Assembly (NCBI GenBank): GCA_050042945.1
Contig: JBHJJC010000064.1
Coordinates: 4,344 to 68,343, forward strand
DNA length: 64,000 nt
Direction: 5' to 3'
From: Croceivirga sp.
Lineage (GTDB): Bacteria; Bacteroidota; Bacteroidia; Flavobacteriales; Flavobacteriaceae
The notes under the pieces were generated by a model. It did not search any database. It was not told where the DNA came from and saw only the letters and a program-made list of their open reading frames with translations. Position 1 is the stretch's first letter. Each line of letters opens with the position of its first letter. Both the position numbers and the translations under genes were made by a program. Shown in pieces: positions 10,074 through 31,866 of the stretch.

Positions 10074-10082
10074 ATTTACACA

Positions 10083-10838: not shown

Positions 10839-10884
10839 ATTAATCCCTATAGGATTTTTTATTTTAGGATAAATTAACTTTATT

Positions 10885-14856: not shown

Positions 14857-17800
14857 TTATTCCAGTGAACCCAATAAATCATCCAGCTCCGTTTGACTCA
14901 GGCCTGCATCAGGGAAATCTGAAGGAGTATACGTCTTTTCCTGAGCATTTGTACAAAAGGACGAAATGCTGCTTAGATTTCCCAATAGATTATCCACTAA
15001 TTTTTTTATGGTATCATGTTTGTGCAATACCCGGCTGTAACTCCATCGCCCATTCAACTCTCCCTTTTCTGAAATCCAAGTATTCACTTCAAACATATAG
15101 GTACGCTCACTTAACGGGTGTCTTACATTGTCCAAAAGGAAATCCAATTCAACCCCTCTTGAAGAAACTTTCATCTGGGAACCGAGATAATTGAATGTAA
15201 CCTGAGGATAATCAACAGTTTCCAATTGATTTTTGATGTACCTTAATATACCATAACCTATCCCTCCGCGAGGAATATTTCTCATGGTTTCTTTTATATT
15301 AATGATATTACTTTTTCTATTCCCTCTATTTTGACCGTTGAACCTTACAGGAAAAAAGGATGTGAACCACCCAGCAGTTCCAGATAAGTCTATATCGGTT
15401 CCCTTGGTTTCGCGTCCGTGTCCTTCAATACCTATGCTTATTTCAGGGATTTTGCTCCATTTGGATAGTGTTTCTAACATGCCTGTAATCAAAAGTTCTA
15501 CTATTTTGGTGCCAAATGCCTCATTGGCACTGTTGAGCAAAATATCTGTTTGTTCCGCATCCATTCGAAAATCAATACTATCGATATCACTTTCATGAAT
15601 CGTATCGCTCTTTTTAATGAAATCAGTAGGCAACGATTTCACCTCCTTGATATGTTCTTTCCAAAAAGGGAGCTCATCCTCTAAATCCAAGTTTACCATA
15701 TAATTACTCCATGTTTGTATTGAAGAAGTTTTTTTAGGCAAGCTTAAAATTTTAGAATGATTGATTTGCTCTGACAGATAGATGAAATCATCGATGATAA
15801 TCTGCCAAGATACAGCGTCTATGACCAAGTGATGCCCCAAAAGTAAACATATCGGTGCGGTACTTTGCCCAGTGTATAGGTAAATACACTTGAACAATGT
15901 ATCTTTTGAAAGGTCTAAATTTTCTTGGGTATCTTTAATTATTTTAGTCAAGTATTTCGTTTGCTCTTGCTTATCGAGGTCGGAGATATTTTTATAGACT
16001 AGGAAGTTGATGCCTTTAGATTGCCCAATCGTAGCCTTCCATTTTTTTTGCTCTTTATAAAAATTAGAGCGCAGGGCATCATGTTGCTTCACTAGAACAC
16101 TCATAATATCCAAAAGCTCTTTTTCTTTCAAGGACGAAAGCCCAATAATCCGGTAACCTTGGTTCCAAAAATGGGGAGCATTTTTATGGGTCTCAAAAAA
16201 CCAATGTTGGATGGGTGTCATAGCGACACTACCCAAGATTATTCCAGTTTCTACTTCACCAATATTTGGGTTTTTTTTGATGGACACACATAGTTCTGCA
16301 ATAGTTTGATTTTCAAAGAGGTGGTTCGCCGTCAATTCGATGCCCTGTTTTCTTGCTTTTGAGATAATTTGTATGCTCAATATGGAATCCCCGCCAATTT
16401 CAAAGAAATTATCATTGAGACCAATTGGGCCCGTTTGTAGGACTTCTTCCCAAATTTGGATGAGCGTTGTTTCTATTGCATCGCGTTTTCCCATATTAGG
16501 CGTAATGACTCTGGAAAGTTCTGAAATGGTCTGGTGTTCGAATAACTGGTCTGCCGATAGTTCAAGGCCTAGTTTTCTTGCTTTTGAGATAATTTGTATG
16601 CTCAATATCGAATCACCACCCATTTCAAAGAAATTATCATCTATCCCAATAGGCGATATGTCGAGAACCTGCTCCCACAAATGGACCAATTGTTGTTCCG
16701 CACTGTCAAAAGTACTTTGATTTTCTTCCCTTGTTTTCACTTGGCCCATGGGAGTTGGCGCCATGGCCCTTAGCGTATTTTTATCCACTTTCCCATTTGG
16801 CAATACCGGGATATTCCCAACAATTTGAATGCTTGAGGGAACCATATAGTTTGGTAGTTGCTCTTTTAAAATGGAAGAGATTTTTAGGACGCTAGCTTCA
16901 TCTGTTTGTAATTTCACATAAGCCACCAATTTTTTTGAGACTTTGGATACTATCATATATATATCAGCATCCCTATTAGTGGCTTCCTCCTCCACCACTA
17001 GAACAACGGCTTGCTCGACCTCTTTTATGGCATGTAAAACATTTTCAATTTCATCAAGTTCGATGCGATGTCCCCGTATTTTCACTTGATCATCCGACCT
17101 TCCTAAAAACTCAAAACTACCATCTTTACGTTGTCTTGCGAAATCACCTGTCCTATATAGTTTTGCATCCCCTGTTTTTTCAAATGGATGGTCGATAAAA
17201 GCAGCTTTGGTCAGCTTTGGTCTGTTGATGTAGGCTTTGGACAAACCAGGACCTCCAATAAACAATTCCCCCGTTTCCCCTTCTGGTACTTGATTCAGGG
17301 CTTCATCCAGAAGTAAGATTTGGGCGTTTGCTACCGCTTTTCCAATAGGGATGGAACGCTCCAAGTCCTGTGGTTCAACTCGATGTGCCATACACCAAAC
17401 AGTTGCTTCAGTAGGGCCATATTCGTTGTATAAAGCTGTCTTAGGCAGAACTTTGAAATGCTTTTCTGCGGTATGTTTAGTGCAAGCCTCTCCTGCAACA
17501 ATAATCGTATTTAAAGACGCAAGGCACGCGACCTGGGCATGGTCCAAAATCACATCATAGAGCGTGGGCAGCATTAAGGTATGGCTTACTTGATGTGTGC
17601 GTATCGTTTCCGTCAATAACTGCATATCCTGTTCTAGCCGTTTTTCGGAAACCACCAAATTACCACCGCTGCACAAAGTCCAGAACAATCCAGCCTTGGA
17701 ACTATCAAATGCAATGGACGATAACAAAAGAAAGGCAGTCGGTTGGTTGGGGTAGAAATCCAAACGACCTCTAGTGGAATTCACGATATTCCCATGGGTA

Positions 17801-19752
17801 ATGGGCACACCCTTGGGTTTTCCAGAACTCCCTGAGGTATAGATGACGTAAGCCAAATGATCTGGCGTAGTTTCGGGGAAAACAACATTGGAATCCGTAC
17901 TGGATGGGGGTATCATGGAAATGTACGCTACCGTATTCGTATTAAAGCGCGATTCATACCCTTCTTCCGTAAGCACAAAATTCACTTCAGCATCTTTTAG
18001 CATATAAGCAATACGGTGCTTGGGGTATTCTGGATCTAAAGGCAAATAAGCGGCTCCAGCTTTTAGTATTGCCAATAATCCAATAACCAAGTCTACCGAA
18101 CGGTCCAAACATAGACCAACGATCTGATTTTCACCCTTGGTTTTTTGAACGATTTTAGTTGCAATAGCTGTTGATCTGTCCAGTAAATCTTGGTAGGTAA
18201 TGGAGGTAGGGCCACAGCTGACCGCCACCTTACTTGGAAACTGAACCGCTATATTATTGATGATCTCATGGATAGCAAAATTTCCTTCATATGCCCAGTT
18301 ATTAGCAGTAACAATTTCTTTTTTGCTAACATCATCGATTTTAAACAATGACGGCGGTCGCACTTCAATTTGGGAAATGTCAACCTGCTGGTCTATAATT
18401 ACCCTTTCAAGTACGGCTTTCAACTGCTCTTGAAATGAAAGGATGGAGTGTTCTTCAAATAAATCTGACATGTACTCTATGGTAGAGGAAATCTGTCCAT
18501 CTTCTTCCGCTATATAAAGGGTTAGGTCAAATTTGGCCACACCGACTTCCGAAGGATGATGCATGACCTTAAGATCTTCTGAAAAGAAAGGTTTTTCAGG
18601 AACTTTGTGATAAATGAACATTACTTGGAAAAATGGATTAATGTTCAGTTTTCGCTTTGGCATTAGTTCTTTGACCAAGATGTTAAAAGGTACATCCTTA
18701 TTTGCAAAAGCCTCTAGCACGACTTCTTTTACTCGGGTTACCAATCGGTCAAAGTTCATTGCCTCTTCAAGTTCGGTCTGAAGTACAATGGTGTCATTAA
18801 AAAACCCCATCAACCCCTCCAATTCCTTTGCATTTCTATTGGCTACAGGGGAACCTACGGCAATAGTCGTTTGTTTGCTTAACTTATGTAAGAGGATGTA
18901 ATATGCTGTCAACATAATTACGTAGGGTGTGGCCTGCATCTTTTTCGCGAGGGCAAGAATATCTTGGGAGAAATCCCATGAATATTTCTGGGTTTGCAGA
19001 CTTCCCCTATACGAAAGGGTAGTGGGTCTTAAGAAATCATGGGGTAATAGCAGGGATTGAACATTTCCTGCTAACCTCTTTTTCCAAAAATCGAGCTGCG
19101 CAATGGGAACTCCGATTTTTTTTTGATGGTAGGCATAATCCACATATTGTATTGATGGCCTCAACTTACTAAGCGGTTTATTGGAACTTAGTTCACTATA
19201 ATATTTGGCCAGATGTTTACGGAAGACCATCATGGACCATTTATCGGTTATGATGTGATTGAGCGTCAAGAAAAGGCGATGTTCATTATGAGAACATTTT
19301 ACTAAAGAGAATTTATACAAAGGGCCTTTTTCCAAAGAAAACGATGTGGATGCATCCTTTAACCCGATGCTTTCAATTTGATGCTCTAAATCTTTTCCTC
19401 TGAGGTTGCTAATATCATGAATAGTCAAATTCAGGGTAAGTGATTCATTAAGTGTCTGTATGATTTCCCCATCTTTTCCAGGGATATAGATGCTTCTAAG
19501 AACATCAAAATCCTTTAGAACATACTCTAATGCCTTTTCAAAAGAGGCGCTGTCCAGTTTCCCTTCAAAATTATAGCATTCACAATAATTGTAAAATGGG
19601 TTGTCAGGATGTAGTTTTTGCAAAAACCATAGCTGCTCTTGCCCATAGGATAGGGGAGCCAATAGCGCTTTGGGCATTTTTCGAATAGCAGCGAAACCAC
19701 TATTGCCGCCAACCTTGTCCCTTCTTTTCCATTGCTCTAGTAAAGATGCCAT
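14857..19752 (-). CDS. NRPS module C-A-T-T-E (tandem carrier domains followed by epimerase)
   Basis: The C domain has the variant core TLNHIITDKWS (19234-19260). The A cores are LAYVIYTSGSSGKPKG, NEYGPTE, YRTGD, GRSDDQVKIRGHRIE, PNGKVDK. T1 is FFEMGGDSILSIQ (Ser1048) and T2 is FFEIGGDSILSIQ (Ser1123). The E cores are PIQHWFF, HHLVIDAVSW, EGHGRE, GWFTSFFP, GIGYG, FNYLG. Confidence 0.92.
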   Translation of the reverse strand: MASLLEQWKRRDKVGGNSGFAAIRKMPKALLAPLSYGQEQLWFLQKLHPDNPFYNYCECYNFEGKLDSASFEKALEYVLKDFDVLRSIYIPGKDGEIIQTLNESLTLNLTIHDISNLRGKDLEHQIESIGLKDASTSFSLEKGPLYKFSLVKCSHNEHRLFLTLNHIITDKWSMMVFRKHLAKYYSELSSNKPLSKLRPSIQYVDYAYHQKKIGVPIAQLDFWKKRLAGNVQSLLLPHDFLRPTTLSYRGSLQTQKYSWDFSQDILALAKKMQATPYVIMLTAYYILLHKLSKQTTIAVGSPVANRNAKELEGLMGFFNDTIVLQTELEEAMNFDRLVTRVKEVVLEAFANKDVPFNILVKELMPKRKLNINPFFQVMFIYHKVPEKPFFSEDLKVMHHPSEVGVAKFDLTLYIAEEDGQISSTIEYMSDLFEEHSILSFQEQLKAVLERVIIDQQVDISQIEVRPPSLFKIDDVSKKEIVTANNWAYEGNFAIHEIINNIAVQFPSKVAVSCGPTSITYQDLLDRSTAIATKIVQKTKGENQIVGLCLDRSVDLVIGLLAILKAGAAYLPLDPEYPKHRIAYMLKDAEVNFVLTEEGYESRFNTNTVAYISMIPPSSTDSNVVFPETTPDHLAYVIYTSGSSGKPKGVPITHGNIVNSTRGRLDFYPNQPTAFLLLSSIAFDSSKAGLFWTLCSGGNLVVSEKRLEQDMQLLTETIRTHQVSHTLMLPTLYDVILDHAQVACLASLNTIIVAGEACTKHTAEKHFKVLPKTALYNEYGPTEATVWCMAHRVEPQDLERSIPIGKAVANAQILLLDEALNQVPEGETGELFIGGPGLSKAYINRPKLTKAAFIDHPFEKTGDAKLYRTGDFARQRKDGSFEFLGRSDDQVKIRGHRIELDEIENVLHAIKEVEQAVVLVVEEEATNRDADIYMIVSKVSKKLVAYVKLQTDEASVLKISSILKEQLPNYMVPSSIQIVGNIPVLPNGKVDKNTLRAMAPTPMGQVKTREENQSTFDSAEQQLVHLWEQVLDISPIGIDDNFFEMGGDSILSIQIISKARKLGLELSADQLFEHQTISELSRVITPNMGKRDAIETTLIQIWEEVLQTGPIGLNDNFFEIGGDSILSIQIISKARKQGIELTANHLFENQTIAELCVSIKKNPNIGEVETGIILGSVAMTPIQHWFFETHKNAPHFWNQGYRIIGLSSLKEKELLDIMSVLVKQHDALRSNFYKEQKKWKATIGQSKGINFLVYKNISDLDKQEQTKYLTKIIKDTQENLDLSKDTLFKCIYLYTGQSTAPICLLLGHHLVIDAVSWQIIIDDFIYLSEQINHSKILSLPKKTSSIQTWSNYMVNLDLEDELPFWKEHIKEVKSLPTDFIKKSDTIHESDIDSIDFRMDAEQTDILLNSANEAFGTKIVELLITGMLETLSKWSKIPEISIGIEGHGRETKGTDIDLSGTAGWFTSFFPVRFNGQNRGNRKSNIINIKETMRNIPRGGIGYGILRYIKNQLETVDYPQVTFNYLGSQMKVSSRGVELDFLLDNVRHPLSERTYMFEVNTWISEKGELNGRWSYSRVLHKHDTIKKLVDNLLGNLSSISSFCTNAQEKTYTPSDFPDAGLSQTELDDLLGSLE
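16273..16701 (-). repeat. tandem duplication encoding two consecutive carrier (T/PCP) domains
   Basis: The phosphopantetheine Ser codons are at 16609-16611 and 16384-16386, exactly 225 nt (75 codons) apart. The surrounding nucleotide strings are near-identical (ttttcttgcttttgagataatttgtatgctcaatat at 16348 and 16573). Confidence 0.9.
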
Positions 19753-19794
19753 TTATATCAATCTTTTTTTATCAAATTCTGCTTAGAAACCTAT

Positions 19795-21033
19795 TTACTT
19801 TAATCCTATAGCAACGGCTAATTTATACAGCCATCTTCTAATCTGATCTTCTACCCCAAGATTAACATCAAAAATTCGTTCAACCATCCAATACGCAGAA
19901 ATTATAATGAGTAGAATACAACCGTAAAAGAAGATTCCCTTGTAAATTTTCTTTTTTCTTAAAAAGAATAAAATAGGGAAAATTCCAGCTATAATAAGAA
20001 CTTGGCCAATTTCAACGCCAATGTTAAAACCAAAAAGAGAATACGTTAGAAAGGTATTCGTTAACCCCAAATCTCCCAAAACACTTGCAAAACCAAAACC
20101 GTGGAATAGTCCAAAGATAAAGGCAATGATCCAGTCCCTTCCTTTGAAAATCGGAATGATATTGTGAAATGCTGCTAGGCCTATGGAAAAAGCTATAATA
20201 GATTCTACCACCCTACTTGGTAAGGTAACGATTTCCAAAGCGGCCAATGACAACGTAATGGTGTGGGCAATAGTGAAGAAGGTAACAATCTTCAAAATAT
20301 ACATAAACGCAGGTTTGAACTTTAGGACCGGATACCATCCAAAAAAGTTACTATTGGTCAATTTAACAGTCGCTTCCTCTTTTCTATACAGTACGGAAGG
20401 TAATATCAAGGCGATTAGAAATAAAATGTGATCAAGTCCAATCCAAATATGCCACACACCTTGTTTTACCATTCCTAAAAAACCTTTCCAAATGGACATA
20501 TCATCTAGAAAAAGGGTGTCTTTAGTTTCTTCTGGAGAAAAATAAAGGGAAATAATGGCTTCGTTATTGACCACACCATCTCTCCAATTTTGCTCTACAA
20601 CCAGAAAACCACGGTGCGTGTCATCAGCCTCAAAAGCTGGATTAAAGAATACATCAATCGATTCTGGGATATCTTTGGAATTCTCCAAATAAAAATAAAG
20701 CTTCACATAGTTTCCATAGTCGATTTCGCGCATTTCAACTTCCTTATAAACAAGTTCATATTGTTGTCCATTGGAAGACAGCGAGGAATGCTCGAGCAGG
20801 TATTTTTTTATTGCAGCAATATGGGGTTGTACTTCATCATATGTTGCATCTTTGGGTAGGTTGAGATTAAAGACTTTGTTAATTTCATTGATATTGAATT
20901 CAAAGCGTCCATGAATGCCATCTTCTTCATAAATATTCAGAAAAATGTAACTACTGTTAATTGCATGGGCGGAAGCAAAAAAAGGTGCCATCAAGGCAAT
21001 TAAAAAAAGTATTTTGAAAAAAGTTTTTTTCAT
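19795..21033 (-). CDS. HupE/UreJ-family membrane protein with large N-terminal extracytoplasmic domain
   Basis: The ATG at 21033 gives the signal peptide MKKTFFKILFLIALMAPFFASA. The C-terminal half is polytopic and carries the family motif GLDHILFLIAL. The gene is first in the minus-strand operon, 42 nt upstream of the C-A-T-T-E gene. Confidence 0.65.
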   Translation of the reverse strand: MKKTFFKILFLIALMAPFFASAHAINSSYIFLNIYEEDGIHGRFEFNINEINKVFNLNLPKDATYDEVQPHIAAIKKYLLEHSSLSSNGQQYELVYKEVEMREIDYGNYVKLYFYLENSKDIPESIDVFFNPAFEADDTHRGFLVVEQNWRDGVVNNEAIISLYFSPEETKDTLFLDDMSIWKGFLGMVKQGVWHIWIGLDHILFLIALILPSVLYRKEEATVKLTNSNFFGWYPVLKFKPAFMYILKIVTFFTIAHTITLSLAALEIVTLPSRVVESIIAFSIGLAAFHNIIPIFKGRDWIIAFIFGLFHGFGFASVLGDLGLTNTFLTYSLFGFNIGVEIGQVLIIAGIFPILFFLRKKKIYKGIFFYGCILLIIISAYWMVERIFDVNLGVEDQIRRWLYKLAVAIGLK

Positions 21034-21462
21034 TTTAATCTCGATTTTCTTGTCTGTTAGACAACAAAAGAACATAACCAGGGGCATTAGTCAAAACGAA
21101 ACTCGTTAAGACCAAACATTAAACGCTAAAGTGGAATATTTGCATTTTAATGGGAACTTTAAAAGTAGTATGCTCTGGTTGGTTATTTTTGAAGTAACAA
21201 TATTCACTACTAAAAAAATTGTTTTATCAATATTAACCCCAATTAATTGTTATTTTTCGATGAATTTCACTTAATCAAGATAACTTTCGCAAGGGTAGAC
21301 GATAAAATTTCTGAAATTATGGAATTCAAGGTGCCTAAACAACCTGAATTTTTCTGCTTTAACTTTAAAATTCCCACTTCAACGAACTTTTTAAAACATC
21401 TACAGGAATATGCGGTTCTTTTGTAATATCCATTCTACCGTTTCATTAAATTTAAAGTGCAT

Positions 21463-22614
21463 ATGGATTTTTCTATTCCACGAGAACTTTTAGACTACAA
21501 AAAGAGCGTTGTAGAGTTTGCCCAATCCAATTTGAATTCCTCTTTTGTGGAAGATGACAAAGCATGCAGGTTCAATCGGAAGGATTGGAACAAATGTGCT
21601 TTTTTCGGCATTCAAGGATTGGCCGCTCCCAAGAACTTCAATAAAGACAACGCGGACATAGATATGGTCAGGGCCACATTAGCTATGGAAGGCTTAGGAT
21701 ATGGCTACAAGGACAACGGCTTACCCCTTGCACTCAGTGCACAAATGTGGACGGTTCAATTACCACTTGTGGATTTTGGTACGGAAGCACAGAAGAACGC
21801 CTATTTGCCCAATTTGGTATCAGGAAATTGGATAGCCTCACACGCCCTTACGGAACCGCATGCGGGTTCGGATGTATTCAGCATGCAAACTATGGCCGAG
21901 AAGGTAACGGGAGGATACGTGCTCAATGGAAAAAAATGCTTGATAAGTCTAGCCCCAATATCCGATGTTTTTCTTGTTTTTGCCAATACCAATCCAAAAT
22001 TGGGCAAATGGGGAATTACGGCATTTTTAGTGGAAAGGGGAACCAAAGGATTTACCACATCACCAAATAAAGAAAAAATGGGCCTGCGCACCGTCCCCAT
22101 TGGGGATATGGTATTCAAAGACTGTTTTGTGCCTGCATCCAGCGTTCTGGGTAAAGAAGGAGCAGGGATGTCCATTGCCAATCACTCCCTGGAATATGAC
22201 AGATGTAGTATCCTTGCTTGCCAACTTGGGGCCATGGAAAGACAGCTGGAAGAAACGATACAATTTGCGAAAACTAGAAAACAATTTGGAAAAAGCATTG
22301 GGAATTTTCAGGCGGTGTCCCATAGAATTGCCGATATGAAATTGCGATTGGAAACCTCTAGGTTACTCTTGTATAAAGTAGCGTGGTTAAAGAGTAAGGG
22401 CAAATCCGCAATGATGGAAGCTGCGCTCCTAAAACTACAATTAAGCGAATGTTTTGTGGCATCAAGTTTGGATGCGGTTCGTACCCATGGAGGGGCTGGA
22501 TATTTAACAGAAAATGAAGTGGAACGTAATTTGCGCGATGCCGTAGGCGGTCTTATTTACGCGGGAACCTCTGATATCCAACGGAATATTATTGCAAGTC
22601 TGTTGGGCGTTTAA
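21463..22614 (+). CDS. acyl-CoA dehydrogenase-fold flavoprotein (probable acyl/aminoacyl-carrier-protein dehydrogenase)
   Basis: The ACAD fold is visible throughout (ASHALTEPHAGSD, GWGITAF, FGKSIGNFQAV, GGAGY). The MCAD-type catalytic Glu is replaced (LIYAGTSDIQ). I prefer the ATG at 21463 over the GTG at 21457. Confidence 0.8.
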   Translation: MDFSIPRELLDYKKSVVEFAQSNLNSSFVEDDKACRFNRKDWNKCAFFGIQGLAAPKNFNKDNADIDMVRATLAMEGLGYGYKDNGLPLALSAQMWTVQLPLVDFGTEAQKNAYLPNLVSGNWIASHALTEPHAGSDVFSMQTMAEKVTGGYVLNGKKCLISLAPISDVFLVFANTNPKLGKWGITAFLVERGTKGFTTSPNKEKMGLRTVPIGDMVFKDCFVPASSVLGKEGAGMSIANHSLEYDRCSILACQLGAMERQLEETIQFAKTRKQFGKSIGNFQAVSHRIADMKLRLETSRLLLYKVAWLKSKGKSAMMEAALLKLQLSECFVASSLDAVRTHGGAGYLTENEVERNLRDAVGGLIYAGTSDIQRNIIASLLGV

Positions 22615-22627
22615 ACCAAGTGTTGCT

Positions 22628-24202
22628 ATGATCTTTTCCTTAGTAGATATCGTATCCCTTAATTCCCGAAAATTCCCCGGGAAGGATGCTTTTCGATTCC
22701 TATCTAGTGCCCTAACCCATTCAGAACTGGAAGAGAAGTCCAATAAACTGGCCAAACATTTAAAAGATAAGGGGGTAAAACGCGGTTTCAGGGTTGGCAT
22801 CTATATGAATCGTTGTTTGGAATCTGCCATTGCGGTTTATGGTATTCTAAAAGCTGGAGGATGCTATGTGCCTTTAGATCCCGCTGCTCCAATAGAAAGG
22901 TCACGTTTTGTTTTGAAAGATTGCAACATTAAGCATCTTGTCACCACCAAAAACCAAAGCAGGAAAATAAAAAAACTCCTAGCCACAACTACCGAAGTTG
23001 ATTGTCTTATCGGCTGTGAACTAGAGGATATGCCCTGGAGTTTTTCATGGGAGGATATTTTCAAACTATCCTTAAAAGACTATCTTGCTTTGCAAATCAT
23101 GGAACAGGATTTAGCCTATATTTTGTACACTTCGGGAAGCACAGGAACGCCAAAGGGTATCATGCATACCCATTATAGTGCATTAAATTATGCCAAATTG
23201 GTAGTAGATCAATACCAATTTGATACGAGTGACGTTTTGGGGTCCACCGCCCCCCTTCATTTTGACATGTCGACTTTTGGTTACTTTGCGGCTCCTTTGG
23301 CCGGAGCAACCTGCACCCTTATTTCAGATATGCACCTAAAAATGCCGACTAGTTTGGTTGATTTCTTGAAAAAATCCAAAATAACGGCATGGTATTCTGT
23401 TCCGTTGATTTTGATACAACTCCTACAAACGGGATTGTTGAAAAATGAGGATTTTGATACCTTGAAATGGGTGTTGTTTGCCGGGGAGGTCTTTCCAACA
23501 AAACATCTTCGAAGCCTAATGGGTATTTGGAAAGGAAAAACCTTCGGCAATGTTTATGGCCCTACGGAAGTAAATCAATGTACTTTTTATAATTTAAGGA
23601 CAGCTCCAAAATCAGATGCGCCCATACCCATCGGAAGAGTTTGGAAAAATACGGAATACAAAATATTGGATGAAAATGACAAAGAAGTGAGCGAGGGTCA
23701 GCCCGGGCTTTTGGTTATAAGGTCTGGCACCATGATGAAGGGCTATTGGAACAATCCCGAACTGACCAAGGCTTTGTTATATCAAGAGACTATTGTTCCC
23801 GGTGCGAATGCCGTGTATTACAGAACTGGAGATTTGGTACAATTAAACACACAAGGTGAGCTCTTGTTTTTAGGCAGGAAAGATCGCCAAATTAAGATTC
23901 GGGGATTTCGGATTGAAATCGACGAGGTTGAAAACACCTTGTTAAGAATAGCAGATGTGGCCGAAGTAGCTGTAGTTGTTAACCAAAATAATGATGAAAA
24001 AGTATTGATGGCCACGGTCTTGCCAAGAGACAATAGGGCCCTAGACGTTGGAGAAATATATTTGTTTTGCAAACTACACTTGCCTCCCTATGCCGTTCCA
24101 GAGCAGATTGAAATCTGGAAGGAGTTTCCAAGAACAGGAACTGGGAAAATTGATCGAAAAGCCATTGCGCATAAATTAACCTTTAGTAAGTATGAACGAT
24201 AA
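22628..24202 (+). CDS. free-standing adenylation enzyme (NRPS A-domain / DltA-like)
   Basis: LAYILYTSGSTGTPKG, FAGEVFP, VYGPTE, YRTGD, GRKDRQIKIRGFRIE and GTGKIDRK are present. The ATG at 22628 (MIFSLVDIV) lies 13 nt after the ACAD stop. Confidence 0.88.
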   Translation: MIFSLVDIVSLNSRKFPGKDAFRFLSSALTHSELEEKSNKLAKHLKDKGVKRGFRVGIYMNRCLESAIAVYGILKAGGCYVPLDPAAPIERSRFVLKDCNIKHLVTTKNQSRKIKKLLATTTEVDCLIGCELEDMPWSFSWEDIFKLSLKDYLALQIMEQDLAYILYTSGSTGTPKGIMHTHYSALNYAKLVVDQYQFDTSDVLGSTAPLHFDMSTFGYFAAPLAGATCTLISDMHLKMPTSLVDFLKKSKITAWYSVPLILIQLLQTGLLKNEDFDTLKWVLFAGEVFPTKHLRSLMGIWKGKTFGNVYGPTEVNQCTFYNLRTAPKSDAPIPIGRVWKNTEYKILDENDKEVSEGQPGLLVIRSGTMMKGYWNNPELTKALLYQETIVPGANAVYYRTGDLVQLNTQGELLFLGRKDRQIKIRGFRIEIDEVENTLLRIADVAEVAVVVNQNNDEKVLMATVLPRDNRALDVGEIYLFCKLHLPPYAVPEQIEIWKEFPRTGTGKIDRKAIAHKLTFSKYER

Positions 24203-24428
24203 AATAATAGCGTATATAACGGATAACCTGCTGTATGAGCAATTGGACGACCCATTAACGGCAGATGAAAACCTACTGGAGAGTGGTTTGATAGACTCTT
24301 TGGGAATCATGAAATTAGTGGTATTTATTGAAAGTGAATTTGAAGTAGCCATACCTCCTGAAGATATGACTATTGAGAATTTTATGACAGTCAATCATAT
24401 CAAAGAATATCTGATGTTAGGGAAGTAG
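24192..24428 (+). CDS. stand-alone carrier protein (ACP/PCP)
   Basis: 78 aa with LLESGLIDSLGIMKLV; Ser36 is at 24297-24299. The start overlaps the A-gene stop by 11 nt. Confidence 0.85.
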   Translation: MNDKIIAYITDNLLYEQLDDPLTADENLLESGLIDSLGIMKLVVFIESEFEVAIPPEDMTIENFMTVNHIKEYLMLGK

Positions 24429-24489
24429 AATTTCTTTGTTAACTATCAAAAAACAACTTCAATTTTTTAGCCAAATATTTCTTCTATCA

Positions 24490-25566
24490 ATGAGGTTTAT
24501 AAAATTAGACGGTTTGCGCGGTATTTTTAGTTTAATGATAGTATTATATCATTACCTCCAGGAGTTTTTACCTATATATTTTTATCGTTTTTTTATTATC
24601 CGAGAATCATATGCATTTGTGGATTTCTTTTTTGTTTTGAGTGGTTTTGTAATTTCACATAATTACAATCAGATAGGGTCAAGGGAACAGTTTTTTACAT
24701 ATGTTAAAAAAAGATTCATTAGGCTGTACCCTTTGCTTTTTTATACTGTAATGATTTATTTTTTGTTTAGATTACTGGCATTAAACCTATTTCCTGATGT
24801 AATAGATTCGAGTGTGTCCTTTGATGCAATGCTAATCAAAACTTTGGACGCTCTACTTTTCACTAACTCAACGGTTATTTTAGGGGGAGAAAACGGTGGT
24901 ATGAATTCTCCTTCTTGGTCAATATCTGCCGAAATGATTACCTATATTCTATTTGGTTTGGTTGTTGGACTAACAGGAGAAAAAAAAATAGTTAAGTCAG
25001 TAATTTTTGGTTTGGTAATAGGTTTTGCCAGTATTATTTTGATTTATGAAGGTAGTTTATTTAAAATGTCAGACTATGGATATTTAAGAAGCTTTATCTC
25101 TTTTTTAATGGGTTACTTTGTATGGAAATTAAATCCTAAAAAAATAAAAATCAAGAAGAATCTTGAGCTTTTGTTCCCTTTAATTATTATACTCATGCTT
25201 TATTTTTTGCATAACTATAAGAATACAGATTTAAAATTCTATTTTGAATTTTTGGTTCCCCCTGTATTTGCTATGTTTATCTATTTTTTATTGGTGTCCA
25301 AAGGGTTGTTGACCTCTATGTTGGAAAGTAAACCAATTCAATACTTAGGAAAGATATCGTATTCTATTTATTTGAATCATTTTCTCATATTGATGATTCT
25401 ACCCAAAGCGTCTTTTATATTGTTAAAATTGGAAAATAGTAATGCAAACCAACTTTTAATACTAATTTTCACAATGATTCTGATAATAATATATTCTCAT
25501 GTAACGCATCAAATTATTGAGCTGAGAGGAGGCCGGTTTTTAAAAAGAATATTATTGAAATCATAA
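24490..25566 (+). CDS. acyltransferase family 3 (integral-membrane O-acyltransferase)
   Basis: MRFIKLDGLRGIFSLMIVLYH is followed by about 10 hydrophobic helices, and SWSISAEM is present. I prefer the ATG at 24490 over the TTG at 24436. Confidence 0.8.
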   Translation: MRFIKLDGLRGIFSLMIVLYHYLQEFLPIYFYRFFIIRESYAFVDFFFVLSGFVISHNYNQIGSREQFFTYVKKRFIRLYPLLFYTVMIYFLFRLLALNLFPDVIDSSVSFDAMLIKTLDALLFTNSTVILGGENGGMNSPSWSISAEMITYILFGLVVGLTGEKKIVKSVIFGLVIGFASIILIYEGSLFKMSDYGYLRSFISFLMGYFVWKLNPKKIKIKKNLELLFPLIIILMLYFLHNYKNTDLKFYFEFLVPPVFAMFIYFLLVSKGLLTSMLESKPIQYLGKISYSIYLNHFLILMILPKASFILLKLENSNANQLLILIFTMILIIIYSHVTHQIIELRGGRFLKRILLKS

Positions 25567-25586: not shown

Positions 25587-28500
25587 CTAACCTTCTTCCA
25601 TCAAACGAATTAATATACTTTCCACATATTTCCCATATGTCTTGGCTGTAGGATACTTAAAAATATCTGCAAGTGTTAAAACATTTAATTCAAAAGATTC
25701 CTTTAACCTTGATGTAATAACCATGGCATTCAGGGAGTTACCTCCAATTTGAATGAAGTCATCGTCAATGCTTATTTGAGCTACTTTAAGGACCTCTTTC
25801 CAAACTTCTACAATGATTTCCTCAAATTCGTTGCTGGGTCCCATATAGGTTCTTTTATCTTCTAGGGCCTGGAGAGTAATATTTGGAAGCTTTTTTCTAT
25901 TGATTTTTCCACTTGAAAGAAATTCAAAAGTATCTAAATGAACATAATAGGAGGGCACCATATATTTGGGTAAATATATTTCAAGAGCAATTCTTAAATC
26001 ACGTTCCTCAATTGTGTTTCCACTATAATAGGAAGCTAAATATTCTTGTTCGTTTTGATGAATGACCTTAACCACTGCTTGATTAACGCCCGGATAGCTT
26101 TCTAACGACTTTTCAATTTCGCCAAGCTCTATGCGTAACCCTCTTAATTTGATTTGGGTATCAGTCCTTCCCATGTATTCAATAGCACCATCCATTCGAT
26201 ATCTAGCCAAATCACCAGTTTTGTACAATTTCGAATCAGAATTATTAGAAAATGAATCTTCTAAAAAACGCTTTCTGGTCAACTGATCTTTGTTCAGATA
26301 CCCATGGGCCACTTGAACTCCGGCAATATAAAGTTCACCCACAACTCCAATAGGAACAGGATTTAGGTCGTGGTCCAGAATATATATTTTGGTATTAGCA
26401 ACGGGATGACCAATGGGTACGCCATTTAAATAATCCCCTTTTTTACAATGCCAGCTCGTTACATCAACTGATGCTTCTGTGGGGCCGTAAAGATTGTACA
26501 ATTCAGCATAAAGTTTCTCATGGGTATTTTTAACTGTGCTCATTGCCAAGGCTTCTCCACTACAGAATATTCTTTTCAAACTTGCACCTCGGTATTCTAC
26601 ATCCCTTGTACTAATAAATATATTTAGCATAGATGGCACGAAATGTATAATGTTAACATTATGGGTAGCTATAGCACTAAGAAGGCTATCTTGATCCAAG
26701 TGTTCACCAGGTTGCGCAATGACCAATTTGGCCCCGACTTGCAAAGGCCAAAAAAGCTCCCATACCGAAACATCAAAAGTAAACGGTGTTTTCTGCAGAA
26801 AAACGGTTTTTTCAGTAACTGGATAATCGTTGTTCATCCAATTCAATCGGTTACAGATTCCCTTGTGATGGCATATAACCCCTTTTGGTTCCCCAGTGCT
26901 TCCTGAGGTGTAAATAACATATGCCATATCATCCGGCTGAACATTTACTCTAGGTTGTGTTTCAGGGAAGGTTTCTAAAGTATCCGTCAGAGAACGAATG
27001 TTATAGGAGCTTGTAATTCCCGTATCCATATTATTCCAATCTGTATTGTGATGGAAAAAGACTTTGGCTTGGGAATTTTTTAAGATGTATTCTGCCCTTT
27101 TCTTAGGTGTTGCAGTGTCCAAGGGCAAATAGGCCGCTCCTGCTTTCAAGATACCGTATAAAAAAAACATCATCTCAAAAGATCTGTCCAAGCAGAGCGC
27201 AACAATGTGGTTTTGCCCAACACCTTGCTGTTTTAGAAAATGGGCTACCTGATTTGTTTTCTTGCTAAATGAAAGATAACTCATGGACATCTCACCAAAA
27301 ACAAGGGCTGTATTTTTAGGATTCTCAAGAACCTGCGCTTCAAATTTATCAAGCAAGGTTTCACCAGATTCATAAACTACGGTTGTATTGTTCCAAGTTG
27401 CTATTTTTTTAATTTCTTGAGGCGTTATTATCGATACATCTTGTATTTTTTGATTTTTATTGGCTACGAATGCATCCAGTATTGCCATAAAATGTTGGCC
27501 AATGGAATCATACTGCTCTTTAGAAAAAATGGCATTGTTCAGATCAAATTGAAGTTGGTAATCTCCTTCGTTATTGAAATCATGTACTTGAAGTCGAATA
27601 TGGTGGTTGGAATCAATATGATCGGCCAACAACCAATTACATTTGGTGGGGATTCCTGCAAAATCATGGTAGATCGCAGGAATAAAATTGAAGAGCACAT
27701 TATACGTTTTCATCAATTCTATTGGCGCTCGGGAAATCATGGCATTCTTTAGAACGTCCAAGGACTCCCGTTGTATTTTTTTAAAGATGTCTATAAAACT
27801 ATCTTCGGTATTTATAGCTATATTCAAGGGCAGCAACTCCATAAAAAGCCCGATTGTCTTTTTATCTTTTGGACTACTTCTATTATGATTAGCCATCCCA
27901 ATGGAAAACTTCTCTAGATTACCAATCTTATAAATCAACGTGCAGATGACCGTTAAAAAAATGTTGGATAGCGCTAATTCCATCGTGAGTCCTTTGATAT
28001 CCTTTTCGTAAGAAAATGCTTTTAATTTTTCAGTTCTATCCTTTCCTAATTTAAAATTAACCCTTGTCGAGTCTGTTTTTACTTGATTCCGCTTTACCCC
28101 ATATAGCTGGGGTTTTTCAAGCGTATTTCTAAGTTTTGCTTTCCAATATGGAGAATTCTCCAATTCATGTTGGAATGGATTCTTATTGGCATATGCTTCA
28201 AATGTCAAAAATTCATTTTCATCGGTAGTCACCTCGCCAATGGCATTTATATAATATCTCTCCAGTTGATCATAAAGCAGCTTTACGCTCCAACCGTCTG
28301 TAATCAAATGATGCTGATTCAAATAGAAAACGAATTGATTTTCGCCTAATTTGAAGAGGACTGCACGATATAAAAGGGTACTTAAATCAAAAGGTATTTT
28401 TTTATCCCCATTTAACCATTCTCTACAAGCGAGTTTTGGTTTTTTTTTATCTACAAAATCCAAGAACTGTAATGGACTTTCTACTTTTTCCTTAAATACT

Positions 28501-28715
28501 TGAATGGGTATATCCTCCTCAATTGCTATATACAGTCTTAGCGAATCGTTAGAATCAACAAGCCTTTGAAAAGCCAATTTAAAACAGCCAACATCAATTT
28601 TCCCCTTAATTTCAAAAGTGAGGGGCATATTGTACATCGGGTTATTGGAATCTATTTCCTGCCCCATCCAAATCATCATTTGGCTGTGGGTCATTGGAGC
28701 TGTCTTCATGGTCAT
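25587..28715 (-). CDS. NRPS module C-A-T (A-domain code reads as serine)
   Basis: The C core QHHLITDGWS is at 28287-28313. The A cores are MAYVIYTSGSTGEPKG, NLYGPTE, YKTGD, GRTDTQIKLRGLRIE, SSGKINRK. The T motif is FIQIGGNSLNAM, with Ser995 at 25734-25736. My hand-extracted specificity residues are D-V-W-H-F-S-L-V-D-K. The track start at 28718 is a TTG; there is an ATG at 28715. Confidence 0.92.
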   Translation of the reverse strand: MTMKTAPMTHSQMMIWMGQEIDSNNPMYNMPLTFEIKGKIDVGCFKLAFQRLVDSNDSLRLYIAIEEDIPIQVFKEKVESPLQFLDFVDKKKPKLACREWLNGDKKIPFDLSTLLYRAVLFKLGENQFVFYLNQHHLITDGWSVKLLYDQLERYYINAIGEVTTDENEFLTFEAYANKNPFQHELENSPYWKAKLRNTLEKPQLYGVKRNQVKTDSTRVNFKLGKDRTEKLKAFSYEKDIKGLTMELALSNIFLTVICTLIYKIGNLEKFSIGMANHNRSSPKDKKTIGLFMELLPLNIAINTEDSFIDIFKKIQRESLDVLKNAMISRAPIELMKTYNVLFNFIPAIYHDFAGIPTKCNWLLADHIDSNHHIRLQVHDFNNEGDYQLQFDLNNAIFSKEQYDSIGQHFMAILDAFVANKNQKIQDVSIITPQEIKKIATWNNTTVVYESGETLLDKFEAQVLENPKNTALVFGEMSMSYLSFSKKTNQVAHFLKQQGVGQNHIVALCLDRSFEMMFFLYGILKAGAAYLPLDTATPKKRAEYILKNSQAKVFFHHNTDWNNMDTGITSSYNIRSLTDTLETFPETQPRVNVQPDDMAYVIYTSGSTGEPKGVICHHKGICNRLNWMNNDYPVTEKTVFLQKTPFTFDVSVWELFWPLQVGAKLVIAQPGEHLDQDSLLSAIATHNVNIIHFVPSMLNIFISTRDVEYRGASLKRIFCSGEALAMSTVKNTHEKLYAELYNLYGPTEASVDVTSWHCKKGDYLNGVPIGHPVANTKIYILDHDLNPVPIGVVGELYIAGVQVAHGYLNKDQLTRKRFLEDSFSNNSDSKLYKTGDLARYRMDGAIEYMGRTDTQIKLRGLRIELGEIEKSLESYPGVNQAVVKVIHQNEQEYLASYYSGNTIEERDLRIALEIYLPKYMVPSYYVHLDTFEFLSSGKINRKKLPNITLQALEDKRTYMGPSNEFEEIIVEVWKEVLKVAQISIDDDFIQIGGNSLNAMVITSRLKESFELNVLTLADIFKYPTAKTYGKYVESILIRLMEEG

Positions 28716-29007
28716 CAAAAAAATTAATACTATCGTAACACCCGAAGACCTTATGCCTTTGCAATGTGTTCTTCTGTGTTTTTAAATGTAGCGCTAATTT
28801 CCATAATCTTTACTGATAAGAACCAACGCCAATTAAAATTTCATTAAAACAATGGCTTCTAACTATAGAATGTCCCTCTCAACCCCCATATTTCCCACTT
28901 AACAGGTTTTTTTTGGGTTGGCACCTTAAAAACTTTTGATTTAACCTTTGTTTATGTAATAAACCATAAGCAATATAGGATTGTTGGGTTCCATGCATTA
29001 GAGTTAA

Positions 29008-29481
29008 GTGAAACGTAAAAAGAATAATAAAAATAAGTCTTTTATCCTTGTCTTTATGACTGTGGGAGTGAGCACCCTTTATGTTCTTGCCCCCCTACAC
29101 GAAGAAATTCGGGAGGTTGGCCATAACATCGCACATTATATTGAAGCACCCATTTCTTTTTTGGAGCACACTACCTATAGGAGTACGGAATTTCACACAG
29201 CACACGAACATATAGAAGCTGATCATGGGCATGAACACCTTTTCATTGACTTTTTAGGCGCCTTTTTGGAAAAGTCTTCATCGGAAAAAAGTCCAATGAA
29301 AAATTCTTCTTTAAAGTTGAAAGTAGATAAACACATTATTTCTGAACAAAAGTTTAAAAGGTATGTTGACGTTACTTGTGCTCCTGCCGTAACGATATGG
29401 AAATATATAATAGAGGTGTTACTAGGCTATCGCACCATAATTTATGTGCCTCCCCAAAACATTGATACCTGTAATGTGTAA
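29008..29481 (+). CDS. small membrane-anchored histidine-rich protein
   Basis: GTG start, then a Lys-rich N-terminus and one hydrophobic helix. There are 10 His in residues 31-77 (...HNIAHYIEAPISFLEHTTYRSTEFHTAHEHIEADHGHEH). An alternative ATG lies at 29056. I recognised no family. Confidence 0.5.
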   Translation: MKRKKNNKNKSFILVFMTVGVSTLYVLAPLHEEIREVGHNIAHYIEAPISFLEHTTYRSTEFHTAHEHIEADHGHEHLFIDFLGAFLEKSSSEKSPMKNSSLKLKVDKHIISEQKFKRYVDVTCAPAVTIWKYIIEVLLGYRTIIYVPPQNIDTCNV

Positions 29482-29628: not shown

Positions 29629-31866
29629 ATGAAAAATTATATTTATATTCTCTACTTATTTTTTGTAATTGGAACAATACATGCGCACGATTTAAAAGGA
29701 ACTATTGTGGATGAATCAGGAGTTCCTGTTGAAGGAGTATCCATTGTTAACCAAACCACTAGGGGTTACACCTTCTCAAACGTCTCTGGTTATTTTGAAC
29801 TCGACGACATTTCTATTGGGGATGAAGTCGTTATAAATAGTCTAGGCTTTAGAACCCAACGGTTAACAATCGTTGAAAGTCAATTGGACGCGACCATCAA
29901 AATTATTTTGTTGGGGGAAGCAGTATCGTTAAATCAAGTTACGCTCCTTTCCAAAACAAATCCATTGACAGAATTAGCTAATGTCGATGTTCAAATAAAT
30001 CCGGTAAAATCTTCACAAGAGATTATGCGCAAAGTACCAGGACTTATTATTGGTCAACATGCCGGTGGTGGAAAAGCAGAACAGATTTTTTTAAGGGGTT
30101 TTGATATTGACCATGGTACCGATATTGCGATCAATGTAGACGGATTACCAGTAAATTTACCTTCACACGCACATGGTCAAGGTTATTCTGACCTACATTT
30201 TCTAATACCGGAAATCATTGATAACATCGATTTTGGAAAAGGGCTATATTACGCCGATAAAGGAAATTTTAATACAGCTGGTTATCTTGATTTGAACATT
30301 AAGGATAAGATTGACAACAGTTCCATTGTTGTTGAAGCAGGTCAGTTCAACACGTTGAGGGCAGTTGGTCTTTTAAAAGTGTCTGAAGGGGAATACAGCA
30401 ATGCCTATATTGCCTCTGAAGCTGTTCTGACCGATGGGGTCTTTGATGCTTCACAAAATTTTAACCGGTTGAACATTCTTGGCCGTTATAACTACAATAA
30501 CTATGAAGATGAGCAACTGACCCTTTCTATTTCACATTTTCAAAGTCGTTGGGATGCTTCGGGGCAAATTCCTCAGCGAGCGGTGGACCAAGGTTTGATT
30601 TCGCGATTTGGTGCTATTGATAGCACAGAAGGGGGTAATACAAGCCGTTCTAACATCTGGTTAAAACATATGAAACAGCTGGACGAACATCAACGTATTC
30701 GTACGAACGCTTATTTATCAAAATACGATTTTGAATTGTTTTCAAACTTTACCTTTTTCCTGAACAACCCGGTTGACGGAGATCAAATACAACAGGTAGA
30801 GAGTCGGACCATTATAGGTGCCGAAACCGCTTATGATGTGAATTTCCACACCGATAACCATAATGAGCAATTAAGTTTGACCTCTGGATTGGGCTTTCGA
30901 TATGACGATGTTGACAACAATCAACTATCCCGAACCAGAAACCGAACAGAAATTTTAGAACGGTTGGCCTTTGGTGATGTAGACGAACTGAACGGTTACG
31001 CCTACTCTAGTTTGACCTACAAAACCAAGAATTGGACATTTATTCCTGGTGTTCGTTTAGACTATTTTAGCTTTGGATATAATGATTTCCTTCAACCGAC
31101 CTTCTCTAGTTTACGGGAAAATGATGTTATTGTAAGTCCAAAATTCAATGCCATTTATAGCCCAGGTGAGAACTTCCAAATATATGGCAAAGCCGGATTT
31201 GGTTTCCACTCTAATGATAGCAGGGTTGTCAACGCCCAGAATGCTACCGAAGAAACGTTACCTTCTGCCTTTGGTGCTGATATCGGTACGGTGTTCAAAC
31301 CTTTATCAAACTTAATTATCAATGCTGCTCTATGGGGGCTGAGTCTAGAGCAGGAATTTGTATATGTTGGTGATGAGGCTGTGGTGGAACCCAGTGGAAG
31401 GTCAAGGAGATATGGTGTTGATTTCGGTCTGAGATATCAATTGACCGATTGGTTGTTTGCAAATGCCGATGTTAATTACACCTTAGCCAGAAGTATTGAC
31501 GAAGCCGATGGGGAAGATTTTATCCCATTAGCTCCTGATTTTACATCTGCCGGTGGTCTTACAGTGCGTAACTTGGGTAAATTTTTAGGGAGTCTAAATT
31601 ACCGCTATGTAGATGACAGGCCCGCAAATGAGAATAATTCAATTGTTGCAATTGGCTATTTTGTTACGGATATGAACATTAACTACAACTTCAATAAAAA
31701 TTGGTCGTTTGGTCTTATTGTTGAAAACCTGTTTGATACCGAATGGAATGAAACCCAATTTGCTACAGAGACAAGACTCTTTAATGAAGTGAATCCAATA
31801 GAAGAAATAACATTTACTCCAGGGACGCCCTTTTTCCTTAGGGGGCGTTTAACGGTAAGCTTTTAA
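29629..31866 (+). CDS. TonB-dependent outer-membrane receptor with CarboxypepD_reg-like N-domain
   Basis: Signal peptide, then GTIVDESGVPVEGVSIVN...SNVSGYFEL (Bacteroidota-type N-domain). The plug region reads IFLRGFD, followed by a long beta-barrel that ends in a terminal Phe (RLTVSF). Confidence 0.88.
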   Translation: MKNYIYILYLFFVIGTIHAHDLKGTIVDESGVPVEGVSIVNQTTRGYTFSNVSGYFELDDISIGDEVVINSLGFRTQRLTIVESQLDATIKIILLGEAVSLNQVTLLSKTNPLTELANVDVQINPVKSSQEIMRKVPGLIIGQHAGGGKAEQIFLRGFDIDHGTDIAINVDGLPVNLPSHAHGQGYSDLHFLIPEIIDNIDFGKGLYYADKGNFNTAGYLDLNIKDKIDNSSIVVEAGQFNTLRAVGLLKVSEGEYSNAYIASEAVLTDGVFDASQNFNRLNILGRYNYNNYEDEQLTLSISHFQSRWDASGQIPQRAVDQGLISRFGAIDSTEGGNTSRSNIWLKHMKQLDEHQRIRTNAYLSKYDFELFSNFTFFLNNPVDGDQIQQVESRTIIGAETAYDVNFHTDNHNEQLSLTSGLGFRYDDVDNNQLSRTRNRTEILERLAFGDVDELNGYAYSSLTYKTKNWTFIPGVRLDYFSFGYNDFLQPTFSSLRENDVIVSPKFNAIYSPGENFQIYGKAGFGFHSNDSRVVNAQNATEETLPSAFGADIGTVFKPLSNLIINAALWGLSLEQEFVYVGDEAVVEPSGRSRRYGVDFGLRYQLTDWLFANADVNYTLARSIDEADGEDFIPLAPDFTSAGGLTVRNLGKFLGSLNYRYVDDRPANENNSIVAIGYFVTDMNINYNFNKNWSFGLIVENLFDTEWNETQFATETRLFNEVNPIEEITFTPGTPFFLRGRLTVSF

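Follow-up and report, generated by a model that had tools for sequence, protein, structure and literature searches.

How does a non-ribosomal peptide synthetase (NRPS) cluster obtain its first building block when each of its synthetases opens with a condensation (C) domain? This question is raised by a 64,000-nucleotide stretch of DNA from Croceivirga sp. (Flavobacteriaceae; GenBank assembly GCA_050042945.1, contig JBHJJC010000064.1, positions 4,344 to 68,343), hereafter termed the window and numbered from its first nucleotide. Three adjacent genes on its forward strand (21463–24428) encode a flavoprotein with the acyl-CoA dehydrogenase (ACAD) fold, a free-standing adenylating (A) enzyme and a stand-alone carrier protein. 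A preliminary description of the window likened this trio to the route that oxidizes carrier-bound proline to pyrrole-2-carboxylate. The analysis reported here indicates that the trio is probably an initiation cassette of a type II NRPS, of the PltF/PltL/PltE kind, in which oxidation of a prolyl-S-carrier protein would supply the starter unit. The type of cassette put forward in the preliminary description is upheld by an AnaB/PigA/RedW-like flavoprotein and a PltF-like specificity pocket, while proline is the likely substrate and pyrrole one of two candidate end points.

Organization of the cassette

The flavoprotein gene (21463..22614, +) extends from an ATG at 21463 to a TAA stop codon at 22612–22614, and its product is a predicted aminoacyl (prolyl)-S-carrier-protein dehydrogenase or oxidase on the evidence of three ACAD Pfam domains, NCBIfam models and Protein Data Bank (PDB) matches. 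The A enzyme, a type II NRPS A protein recognized by model TIGR01733 and by the match of its pocket to PltF, is encoded at 22628..24202 (+), its ATG at 22628 lying 13 nt past the flavoprotein stop. The third gene (24192..24428, +) encodes a 78-residue carrier protein comprising a PP-binding domain, with the phosphopantetheine site Ser36 in the motif LIDSLG, and its ATG at 24192 overlaps the stop codon of the A-enzyme gene (24200–24202) by 11 nt. The positions, the gap and the overlap given previously were all reproduced from the open reading frames (ORFs) and their start and stop codons, and Pfam and NCBIfam agree with the earlier naming of the products as an ACAD-fold protein, a complete A enzyme and an LIDSLG carrier protein. 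Pfam likewise places a C domain at the start of all three neighbouring synthetases. The PDB matches of the carrier protein include DltC (35 bits), PltL (31 bits), the carrier domain of Bmp1 (31 bits), CcbZ (30 bits) and PigG (20.5 bits).

The flavoprotein resembles carrier-protein-dependent prolyl dehydrogenases

All three ACAD domains are present in the flavoprotein, and sequence comparison groups the enzyme with the carrier-protein-dependent prolyl dehydrogenases and not with the CoA-dependent ACADs. The top four PDB sequences, spanning 391 to 284 bits, are AnaB (4irn, 391 bits, 45.6% identity), Bmp3 (6cxt, 297 bits) and PigA twice (5zw0, 286 bits), and the best CoA-dependent ACAD scores 236 bits. 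The NCBIfam ranking is headed by PigA (388.8 bits) and RedW (369.2 bits), with a CoA enzyme third (277 bits). In a neighbour-joining tree, which has a single CoA-ACAD outgroup, displays no bootstrap values and thus lends weaker support than the score ranking, the window protein falls with every one of its relatives in a single clade whose sister is AnaB, with PigA and Bmp3 branching next. Grouping with CoA-dependent catabolic enzymes, which the preliminary description had singled out as a result that would overturn its proposal, was observed neither in the PDB and NCBIfam scores nor in the tree.

As read previously, Ala occupies the position of the catalytic Glu of medium-chain acyl-CoA dehydrogenase (MCAD; Glu376), IYAGTSDIQ of the window protein aligning with IYEGTNEIQ in 5lnx; the residue is Ser in AnaB, Bmp3 and PigA. 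Removal of the C2 proton has been assigned to a catalytic Glu in helix G (PMC10849742). Asp246 of the window protein aligns with this residue, Glu244 of AnaB and PigA, a position fixed exactly by PDB entry 6af6, a PigA structure with Ala in its place. The motif around the base is SLEYDR in the window protein, compared with SMEWER (AnaB), SMDWER and SMIWEK in characterized proteins. The acid proposed earlier for the helix-G position is indeed present, but as Asp rather than as the Glu of isovaleryl-CoA dehydrogenase and AnaB. Asp fills the position in 115 of 120 close flavoprotein homologues, and Glu (SLEYER) is found in the close relatives L014, L030 and L033 (loci of the comparison set described below), which share the A-enzyme code. 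An acid is conserved at this putative base, with Asp and Glu interchanging among close relatives.

The A enzyme has a PltF-type pocket

The A enzyme comprises AMP-binding and AMP-binding_C domains and exceeds the cut-off of the amino-acid adenylation model TIGR01733 (352.5 versus 317.4 bits). A full-length search of the PDB did not discriminate between homologues, LgrA, ApnA and PltF all being close. The pocket region alone, by contrast, has PltF (6o6e) as its best match with 158.8 bits, the next reaching 77 bits per domain. The hand-read specificity code of the preliminary description, D-M-F-Y-L-A-V-Q-C-K, was reproduced. The PltF code derived from the pocket alignment, DLLYLALVCK, has D, Y, L, A, C and K in common with it, and the Phe of the window enzyme is a variant within the inner-code consensus of stand-alone proline A domains, L(L/F)YLALVC (PMC3874040), which the window code matches at five of eight positions. 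Asp235, the residue that binds the α-amino group, and Lys517 are retained. Residue 285 corresponds to code position 301, one of three positions (236, 301 and 330) modelled as proline contacts in CcbC (PMC3874040), and is Ala in the window, as in PltF and the proline consensus. The substrate of the A enzyme is probably proline. Activation of D-Ala or of a fatty acid would have spoken against the earlier proposal, and the enzyme appears to be neither DltA-like nor a fatty-acyl ligase. A full-text literature search for literal code strings (DLLYLALVCK and others) returned no match.

Co-variation across related loci

Homologues of the A enzyme and of the flavoprotein number in the hundreds among marine Flavobacteriaceae. 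The relatives were sampled as 83 loci (L numbers), 80 from a scan of one genome per species and three fetched earlier, which span eight or more phyla (Bacteroidota, Cyanobacteria, Chloroflexota, Acidobacteriota, Gammaproteobacteria, Actinomycetota, Planctomycetota and Calditrichota, among others). Matches to the ACAD, the A enzyme and the carrier protein occur together in ∼60 of the 83, mostly in the order seen in the window, a recurrence showing that the association of the three genes is not due to chance.

Two groups of relatives bear on what the cassette makes. In 10 Chloroflexota loci with a flavoprotein the A code is exactly DLFYLALVCK or DLLYLALVCK, and the flavoprotein motif is SMEWER, as in AnaB. 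Seven or more loci with the exact proline code, including L040 itself, encode a homologue of the L040 halogenase. Among proteins of solved structure, that halogenase is closest to Mpy16 (428 bits) and PltA (403 bits), both of them pyrrolyl-carrier halogenases. The flavoproteins of these halogenase-linked loci nest in the same clade of the tree as the window protein. The coincidence of proline code and pyrrolyl-carrier halogenases suggests that the A enzyme/flavoprotein family includes makers of pyrrolyl-S-carrier proteins.

In the second group, 33 of the 83 loci, a gene of the OCD/mu-crystallin type lies just upstream of the flavoprotein gene (L008, a Maribacter locus, at 7649–8704; L053 at 7688–8812; and 31 more). 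The encoded protein is lysine-cyclodeaminase-like, scoring 290 bits to the lysine cyclodeaminase SpLCD compared with 122 bits to ornithine cyclodeaminase. SpLCD prefers lysine and also converts ornithine (PMC5935100); with either amino acid, the presence of a clustered cyclodeaminase suggests that the substrate belongs to the cyclic imino acids. When all 524 columns of the A-enzyme alignment were scanned for separation of loci with and without the cyclodeaminase, residue 285 (position 301) performed best, being invariably Gly where the gene is present (33 of 33 loci) and mostly Ala where it is absent (27 of 40); code position 322 ranked second. Where the cyclodeaminase has been lost, Gly301 is replaced by Ala or Ser, a coincidence seen in three or more separate branches. 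Upstream of the flavoprotein gene in L018, which has an Ala301 A enzyme, an internally deleted cyclodeaminase remnant (8405–8733) keeps ∼80 N-terminal and 29 C-terminal residues, as if a specificity switch were still under way. Neither the 64-kb window as a whole nor the 375 nt upstream of its flavoprotein gene contains a cyclodeaminase gene or a remnant of one, an absence that together with Ala301 fits proline rather than pipecolate. The simplest reading of the pattern is that Gly301 enzymes would take the larger pipecolate made by the neighbouring gene product, while Ala301 enzymes would take proline from the cell pool. The flavoprotein displays no comparable signal of adaptation to ring size, as none of its columns separated the two groups of loci well (best score 0.49); position 239, which is Phe in the reference proteins and Ser, Thr or Ala in many family members, does not track the cyclodeaminase.

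A set of flavoprotein-less clusters (L001, L002, L007, L015, L016, L020 and L027, from Zobellia, Kriegella, Poritiphilus, Pricia and others) keeps the A enzyme, the carrier protein, the synthetases, the HupE/UreJ-2 protein and the TonB receptor, the last two of which are described below. The A codes of these clusters are DPFYLALLCK or DPFYLILACK, with Pro236 and without Gln330, and they presumably start with an unoxidized residue.

Proposed route and hand-off to the synthetases

In the route envisaged here, the Sfp-type phosphopantetheinyl transferase of the cluster (10083..10892, −; Pfam ACPS and AASDHPPT_N) would prime Ser36 of the carrier protein with phosphopantetheine, onto which the A enzyme would load a cyclic imino acid, most likely L-proline, after adenylating it. 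Asp246 of the flavoprotein is the candidate base that would abstract the C2 proton, with hydride transfer to flavin adenine dinucleotide, and the tethered ring would thereby be oxidized. Two such rounds (four electrons) would yield a pyrrole-2-carboxyl-S-carrier protein, and a single round (two electrons) a pyrroline-carboxyl thioester. The thioester would then be taken by the C domain of a C-A-T module (25587..28718, −; Pfam; T, carrier domain) to begin a short and probably glycosylated peptide, which would be completed by two further proteins, C-A-T-T-E and C-T-TE (E, epimerase-like domain; TE, thioesterase domain).

The starter is predicted to pass from the carrier protein to this C-A-T protein. 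The carrier-protein gene of L003, the trio of which is 80–91% identical to that of the window, is followed directly by a same-strand C-A-T gene, as it is in the majority of Bacteroidota relatives. This arrangement, and the fact that the synthetases start with C domains, support the earlier view of the trio as the source of the starter unit. In the window and in L004, L008 and L086 the place of the same-strand C-A-T gene is instead taken by an acyltransferase-3 gene and an inverted C-A-T gene. The A domain of the window C-A-T has the code DVWHFSLVDK, read by hand (MAFFT-based codes of the two in-line NRPS A domains differed from the hand reading at one or two positions), which is taken to be serine-type by comparison with the EntF code.

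The acyltransferase-3 membrane protein of the window (24436..25566, +; PF01757), whose ORF begins 8 nt past the carrier-protein stop, has counterparts in just two of the 83 loci, L004 and L008, and in L086 as well; wherever it is present an inverted C-A-T gene follows. Its homologues at 44–47% identity are found in polysaccharide loci with Wzy, flippase and glycosyltransferase genes. The protein is probably an accessory, a recruited tailoring O-acyltransferase, rather than the outlet of the cassette, and the clustered glycosyltransferase (EryCIII/UDPGT-like; 10885..12225, −; Pfam) suggests a sugar as its target. The cluster is a mosaic, in that the trio is nearest to that of L003 and the acyltransferase-3 and inverted C-A-T are nearest to those of L004, L008 and L086 (47–52% identity); the C-A-T of L003 is only 32% identical to that of the window.

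Alternative explanations

Several observations weigh against a prolyl-to-pyrrolyl cassette. The closest characterized homologue of the flavoprotein, AnaB, performs only a two-electron oxidation and stops at the pyrroline. The putative base of the window enzyme is Asp, while every characterized member has Glu. The flavoprotein also falls below the NCBIfam equivalog cut-offs of PigA (500 bits) and RedW (650 bits), although these cut-offs are narrow because the L040 flavoprotein, which accompanies a canonical proline code and a halogenase, misses both as well (457.5 and 423.6 bits, respectively). With Met236, Val322 and Gln330, the A code departs from the proline consensus at three positions, and Gln330 sits at one of the modelled proline contacts. 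Finally, the first synthetase gene after the trio is inverted and separated from it by the acyltransferase gene. Four other readings were considered. In the first, the same cassette would deliver a two-electron product, a dehydroprolyl or 1-pyrroline-2- or -5-carboxyl thioester of the type made by AnaB and not an aromatic pyrrole, and the resulting cyclic imine or enamine would form the N-terminal unit of the peptide and a possible metal ligand. Besides the proximity to AnaB (391 bits, sister in the tree), this outcome draws on the AnaB-type Glu two residues before the base (SLE-Y-D versus SME-W-E), which PigA lacks; on the relatives that appear to use six-membered rings, whose step in common with proline would be the first α,β-dehydrogenation; and on the annotated genes of the cluster, among which no halogenase or pyrrole-specific tailoring gene was recognized. 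It is countered by the Chloroflexota members of the same clade, which adjoin pyrrolyl-carrier halogenases and so are probably pyrrole makers, and by the four-electron reaction of most characterized members (PltE, RedW, PigA and Bmp3; PMC10849742). We regard the two-electron product as a serious contender, yet one clearly less probable than the prolyl-oxidizing starter cassette itself. We know of no residue or sequence marker that separates two-electron from four-electron enzymes.

The identity of the ring is a separate matter. That the A enzyme loads another cyclic imino acid, either L-pipecolate or, by virtue of Gln330, a polar substituted proline, which the flavoprotein would then oxidize, is rather unlikely. 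The window lineage is nested among loci with the lysine-cyclodeaminase-like gene and keeps Gln330 and Val322 of those loci, and Gln330 occurs in no characterized proline enzyme of the consensus (PMC3874040). Against this, the window enzyme has the Ala301 of PltF and not the Gly301 of the 33 cyclodeaminase-linked loci, the 64-kb window is devoid of a cyclodeaminase gene or remnant, and loss of that gene parallels the change from Gly301 to Ala or Ser in the branches noted above; moreover, since SpLCD also accepts ornithine, the substrate of the relatives is itself uncertain (PMC5935100). Very little probability attaches to a system akin to DltA/DltC, which the preliminary description had listed as feeding the adjacent acyltransferase-3, and in which the carrier-bound acyl group would pass through that protein to a glycan or lipid, bypassing the synthetases. 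The acyltransferase gene does start immediately after the carrier-protein gene, the carrier protein matches DltC best in the PDB, and Chloroflexota relatives have independently paired the cassette with unrelated acyltransferase-3 genes and with glycosyltransferases in loci where no synthetase was recognized among the annotated ORFs. The acyltransferase-3 gene is, however, rare among the relatives, while all Bacteroidota loci examined have the trio flanked by synthetase genes that begin with a C domain; its relatives at 44–47% identity are ordinary enzymes of polysaccharide loci; the A enzyme reaches only 235 and 230 bits with the DltA models, whose cut-offs are 476 and 560 bits; neither an MBOAT protein (DltB) nor DltD is present, the neighbouring membrane protein being an Acyl_transf_3 protein; and a dehydrogenase has no role in the Dlt system. 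Least probable of all, to the point of being negligible, is lipo-initiation in the manner of MbtM/MbtL/MbtN, in which a fatty acyl-AMP ligase loads the carrier protein and an ACAD desaturates the chain. The outline of the trio is the same, and models of long-chain fatty-acid ligases match the A enzyme below threshold. Desaturation of a fatty acyl starter, also entertained in the preliminary description, is contradicted by the amino-acid adenylation signature, by retention of Asp235 and Lys517, by the conserved PltF-type pocket motifs and by the weak MbtN score of the flavoprotein (71 bits, cut-off 700, as opposed to 389 bits for PigA), as well as by the cyclodeaminase or pyrrole-halogenase genes of the relatives. 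The prolyl-S-carrier cassette remains the preferred reading of the trio.

Comparison with characterized systems

The three protein types of the window are those of PltF/PltL/PltE, RedM/RedO/RedW, PigI/PigG/PigA, Bmp4/Bmp1/Bmp3 and CloN4/CloN5/CloN3. With PltE-type cassettes the window shares a flavoprotein of the same clade, the loss of the MCAD Glu, the helix-G acid and a proposed role in starting an assembly line. It differs from them in its Asp base, where theirs is Glu, and in Met236, Val322 and Gln330, and also in setting, with a Bacteroidota-type host and a serine-type NRPS module downstream in place of the polyketide synthase or halogenase of PltE-type systems. In the AnaC/AnaD/AnaB system of anatoxin-a, which converts prolyl-ACP (acyl carrier protein) to pyrroline-5-carboxyl-ACP, AnaB is sister to the whole flavoprotein family of the window. 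The two share the Glu two residues before the base, the base motif being WER with Glu in AnaB and YDR with Asp in the window. The product of AnaB feeds polyketide synthases; the window cassette is flanked by NRPS C, A, T, E and TE domains only, and a polyketide synthase context of this kind is absent. A further comparison is with chalkophomycin, a copper-binding NRPS–polyketide synthase product in which ChmJ/ChmI/ChmH, and ChmG, provide a proline-derived N-hydroxypyrrole (PMC10849742). Both systems contain a cassette, predicted for the window, that loads and oxidizes proline for an NRPS, and the metal-uptake genes flanking the window cassette suggest a metal-binding product here too. Unlike the chalkophomycin system, the window lacks a second ACAD-like N-oxygenase, a hydrolase/re-activation step and diazeniumdiolate genes. 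For the supply of pipecolate the precedent is RapL/FkbL/SpLCD; the cyclodeaminase of the relatives is SpLCD-like (290 bits) and encoded directly upstream of the flavoprotein gene, and the window lacks such a cyclodeaminase gene. To our knowledge, carrier-protein oxidation of pipecolate by an ACAD-type enzyme does not feature in any characterized pipecolate pathway.

As this kind of cassette is already known, its occurrence in an NRPS cluster is not surprising. Thiotemplated proline oxidation would, on the present evidence, now be placed in genomes of the marine Flavobacteriaceae type, and the clusters belong to an uncharacterized family common to Cyanobacteria, Chloroflexota, Acidobacteriota, Gammaproteobacteria, Actinomycetota and other phyla. 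The tracking of the lysine-cyclodeaminase-like gene by Gly or Ala at position 301 amounts to a natural experiment, predicting a switch between proline and pipecolate that can be tested. If the cyclodeaminase product of the relatives is pipecolate, ACAD-type oxidation of a pipecolyl-S-carrier protein would be new chemistry; literature searches returned no characterized match to a system of cyclodeaminase, ACAD and carrier protein or to a picolinate starter made in this way, and no paper describing the cluster family or a product of it.

Metal-uptake genes and the wider cluster

The divergently transcribed neighbour of the trio encodes a two-domain HupE/UreJ-2 protein (19795..21087, −; PF13795), the permease domain of which occupies residues 207–379. 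Its mature N terminus, with the cleavage site read by eye, is a His directly after the signal peptide (FFASA|HAINSS). The homologues in the related loci, from many phyla, keep this His. Metal-capturing 'anglerase'–HupE/UreJ-2 permeases, described in 2025, have a signal peptide, an N-terminal His, a periplasmic domain and a C-terminal PF13795 domain (PMC12537917). The window protein matches this architecture, and is predicted to combine a metal-capture domain with a permease. The HupE_UreJ_2 gene usually accompanies the trio in the related loci and adjoins it across phyla, and its conservation alongside the NRPS genes extends to clusters without the flavoprotein (Zobellia). At the other edge of the cluster a TonB-dependent outer-membrane receptor (29629..31866, +; Pfam) is encoded, which is syntenic and 51–84% identical in Bacteroidota relatives. 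Together, the HupE/UreJ-2 His protein and the TonB receptor suggest that the cluster probably makes a metallophore. Literature searches on HupE-linked NRPS clusters returned no characterized match.

Extending this to the family as a whole is a tentative proposal in which we place limited confidence. An AnaB-like flavoprotein would oxidize a carrier-tethered cyclic imino acid to give the N-heterocyclic head group of a peptide metal carrier, the head group being a pyrrole or pyrroline or, in pipecolate lineages, a tetrahydropyridine or picolinoyl group. The imino acid would be proline in Ala301 lineages and pipecolate from the clustered cyclodeaminase in Gly301 lineages. The short peptide, glycosylated in many lineages, would carry a transition metal and be taken up through the His1 anglerase–HupE/UreJ-2 permease and, in Bacteroidota, also the TonB-dependent receptor. 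From the conserved association with a His1 metal-capture permease, a metallophore bearing an N-heterocyclic head group is suggested; such a compound would be relevant to the acquisition of trace metals in marine habitats. Homologues of the glycosyltransferase are encoded in 19 of the 83 loci, those in Bacteroidota being full-length and of higher identity and the cyanobacterial ones weak or partial.

The two remaining synthetases lie beyond the HupE/UreJ-2 gene. The larger, a C-A-T-T-E protein with tandem carrier domains and an epimerase-like C-terminal domain (14857..19752, −; Pfam), contains the motif HHLVIDA at 1307 and two copies of GGDSI, and its first C domain has NHIITDK in place of HHxxxDG. 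The termination protein, C-T-TE (12364..14751, −; Pfam), has no A domain and so its carrier domain must be loaded in trans. In L003, the closest relative, a single C-A-T-TE protein is found instead of these two. In the first synthetase of L001 and L002 (11832–15971) and of L053 (11987–17464), and probably also in L018 and L024, a QueC/ThiI-like PP-loop ATP-pyrophosphatase segment is inserted between the A and T domains, a segment that is absent from the window C-A-T.

The Chloroflexota locus L040, from a metagenome-assembled genome, has a different layout. Its region 4466–20691 encodes the flavoprotein, the A enzyme, a halogenase, an Acyl_transf_3 protein, the carrier protein, a second halogenase and a second Acyl_transf_3 protein, and a similar arrangement is seen in L043, L046, L050 and L039. 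These L040 genes lie among glycosyltransferases and a sugar epimerase, and no C domain was found among the annotated ORFs of the 21 kb of this locus. Loci of the L040 type may place a halogenated pyrrole-carboxyl group on a glycan by means of the acyltransferase-3.

Two further parts of the window complete the surroundings. Between the C-A-T and TonB receptor genes is an ORF for a 157-residue protein (29008..29481, +) that has no Pfam match and is weakly conserved, with syntenic homologues of 24–56% identity in Bacteroidota relatives. Past the TonB receptor, the segment 32140–34488 (+) encodes an α/β-hydrolase esterase, an S51 peptidase and a VanX-like M15 D-Ala-D-Ala dipeptidase, which could process an imported peptide or be unrelated to the cluster.

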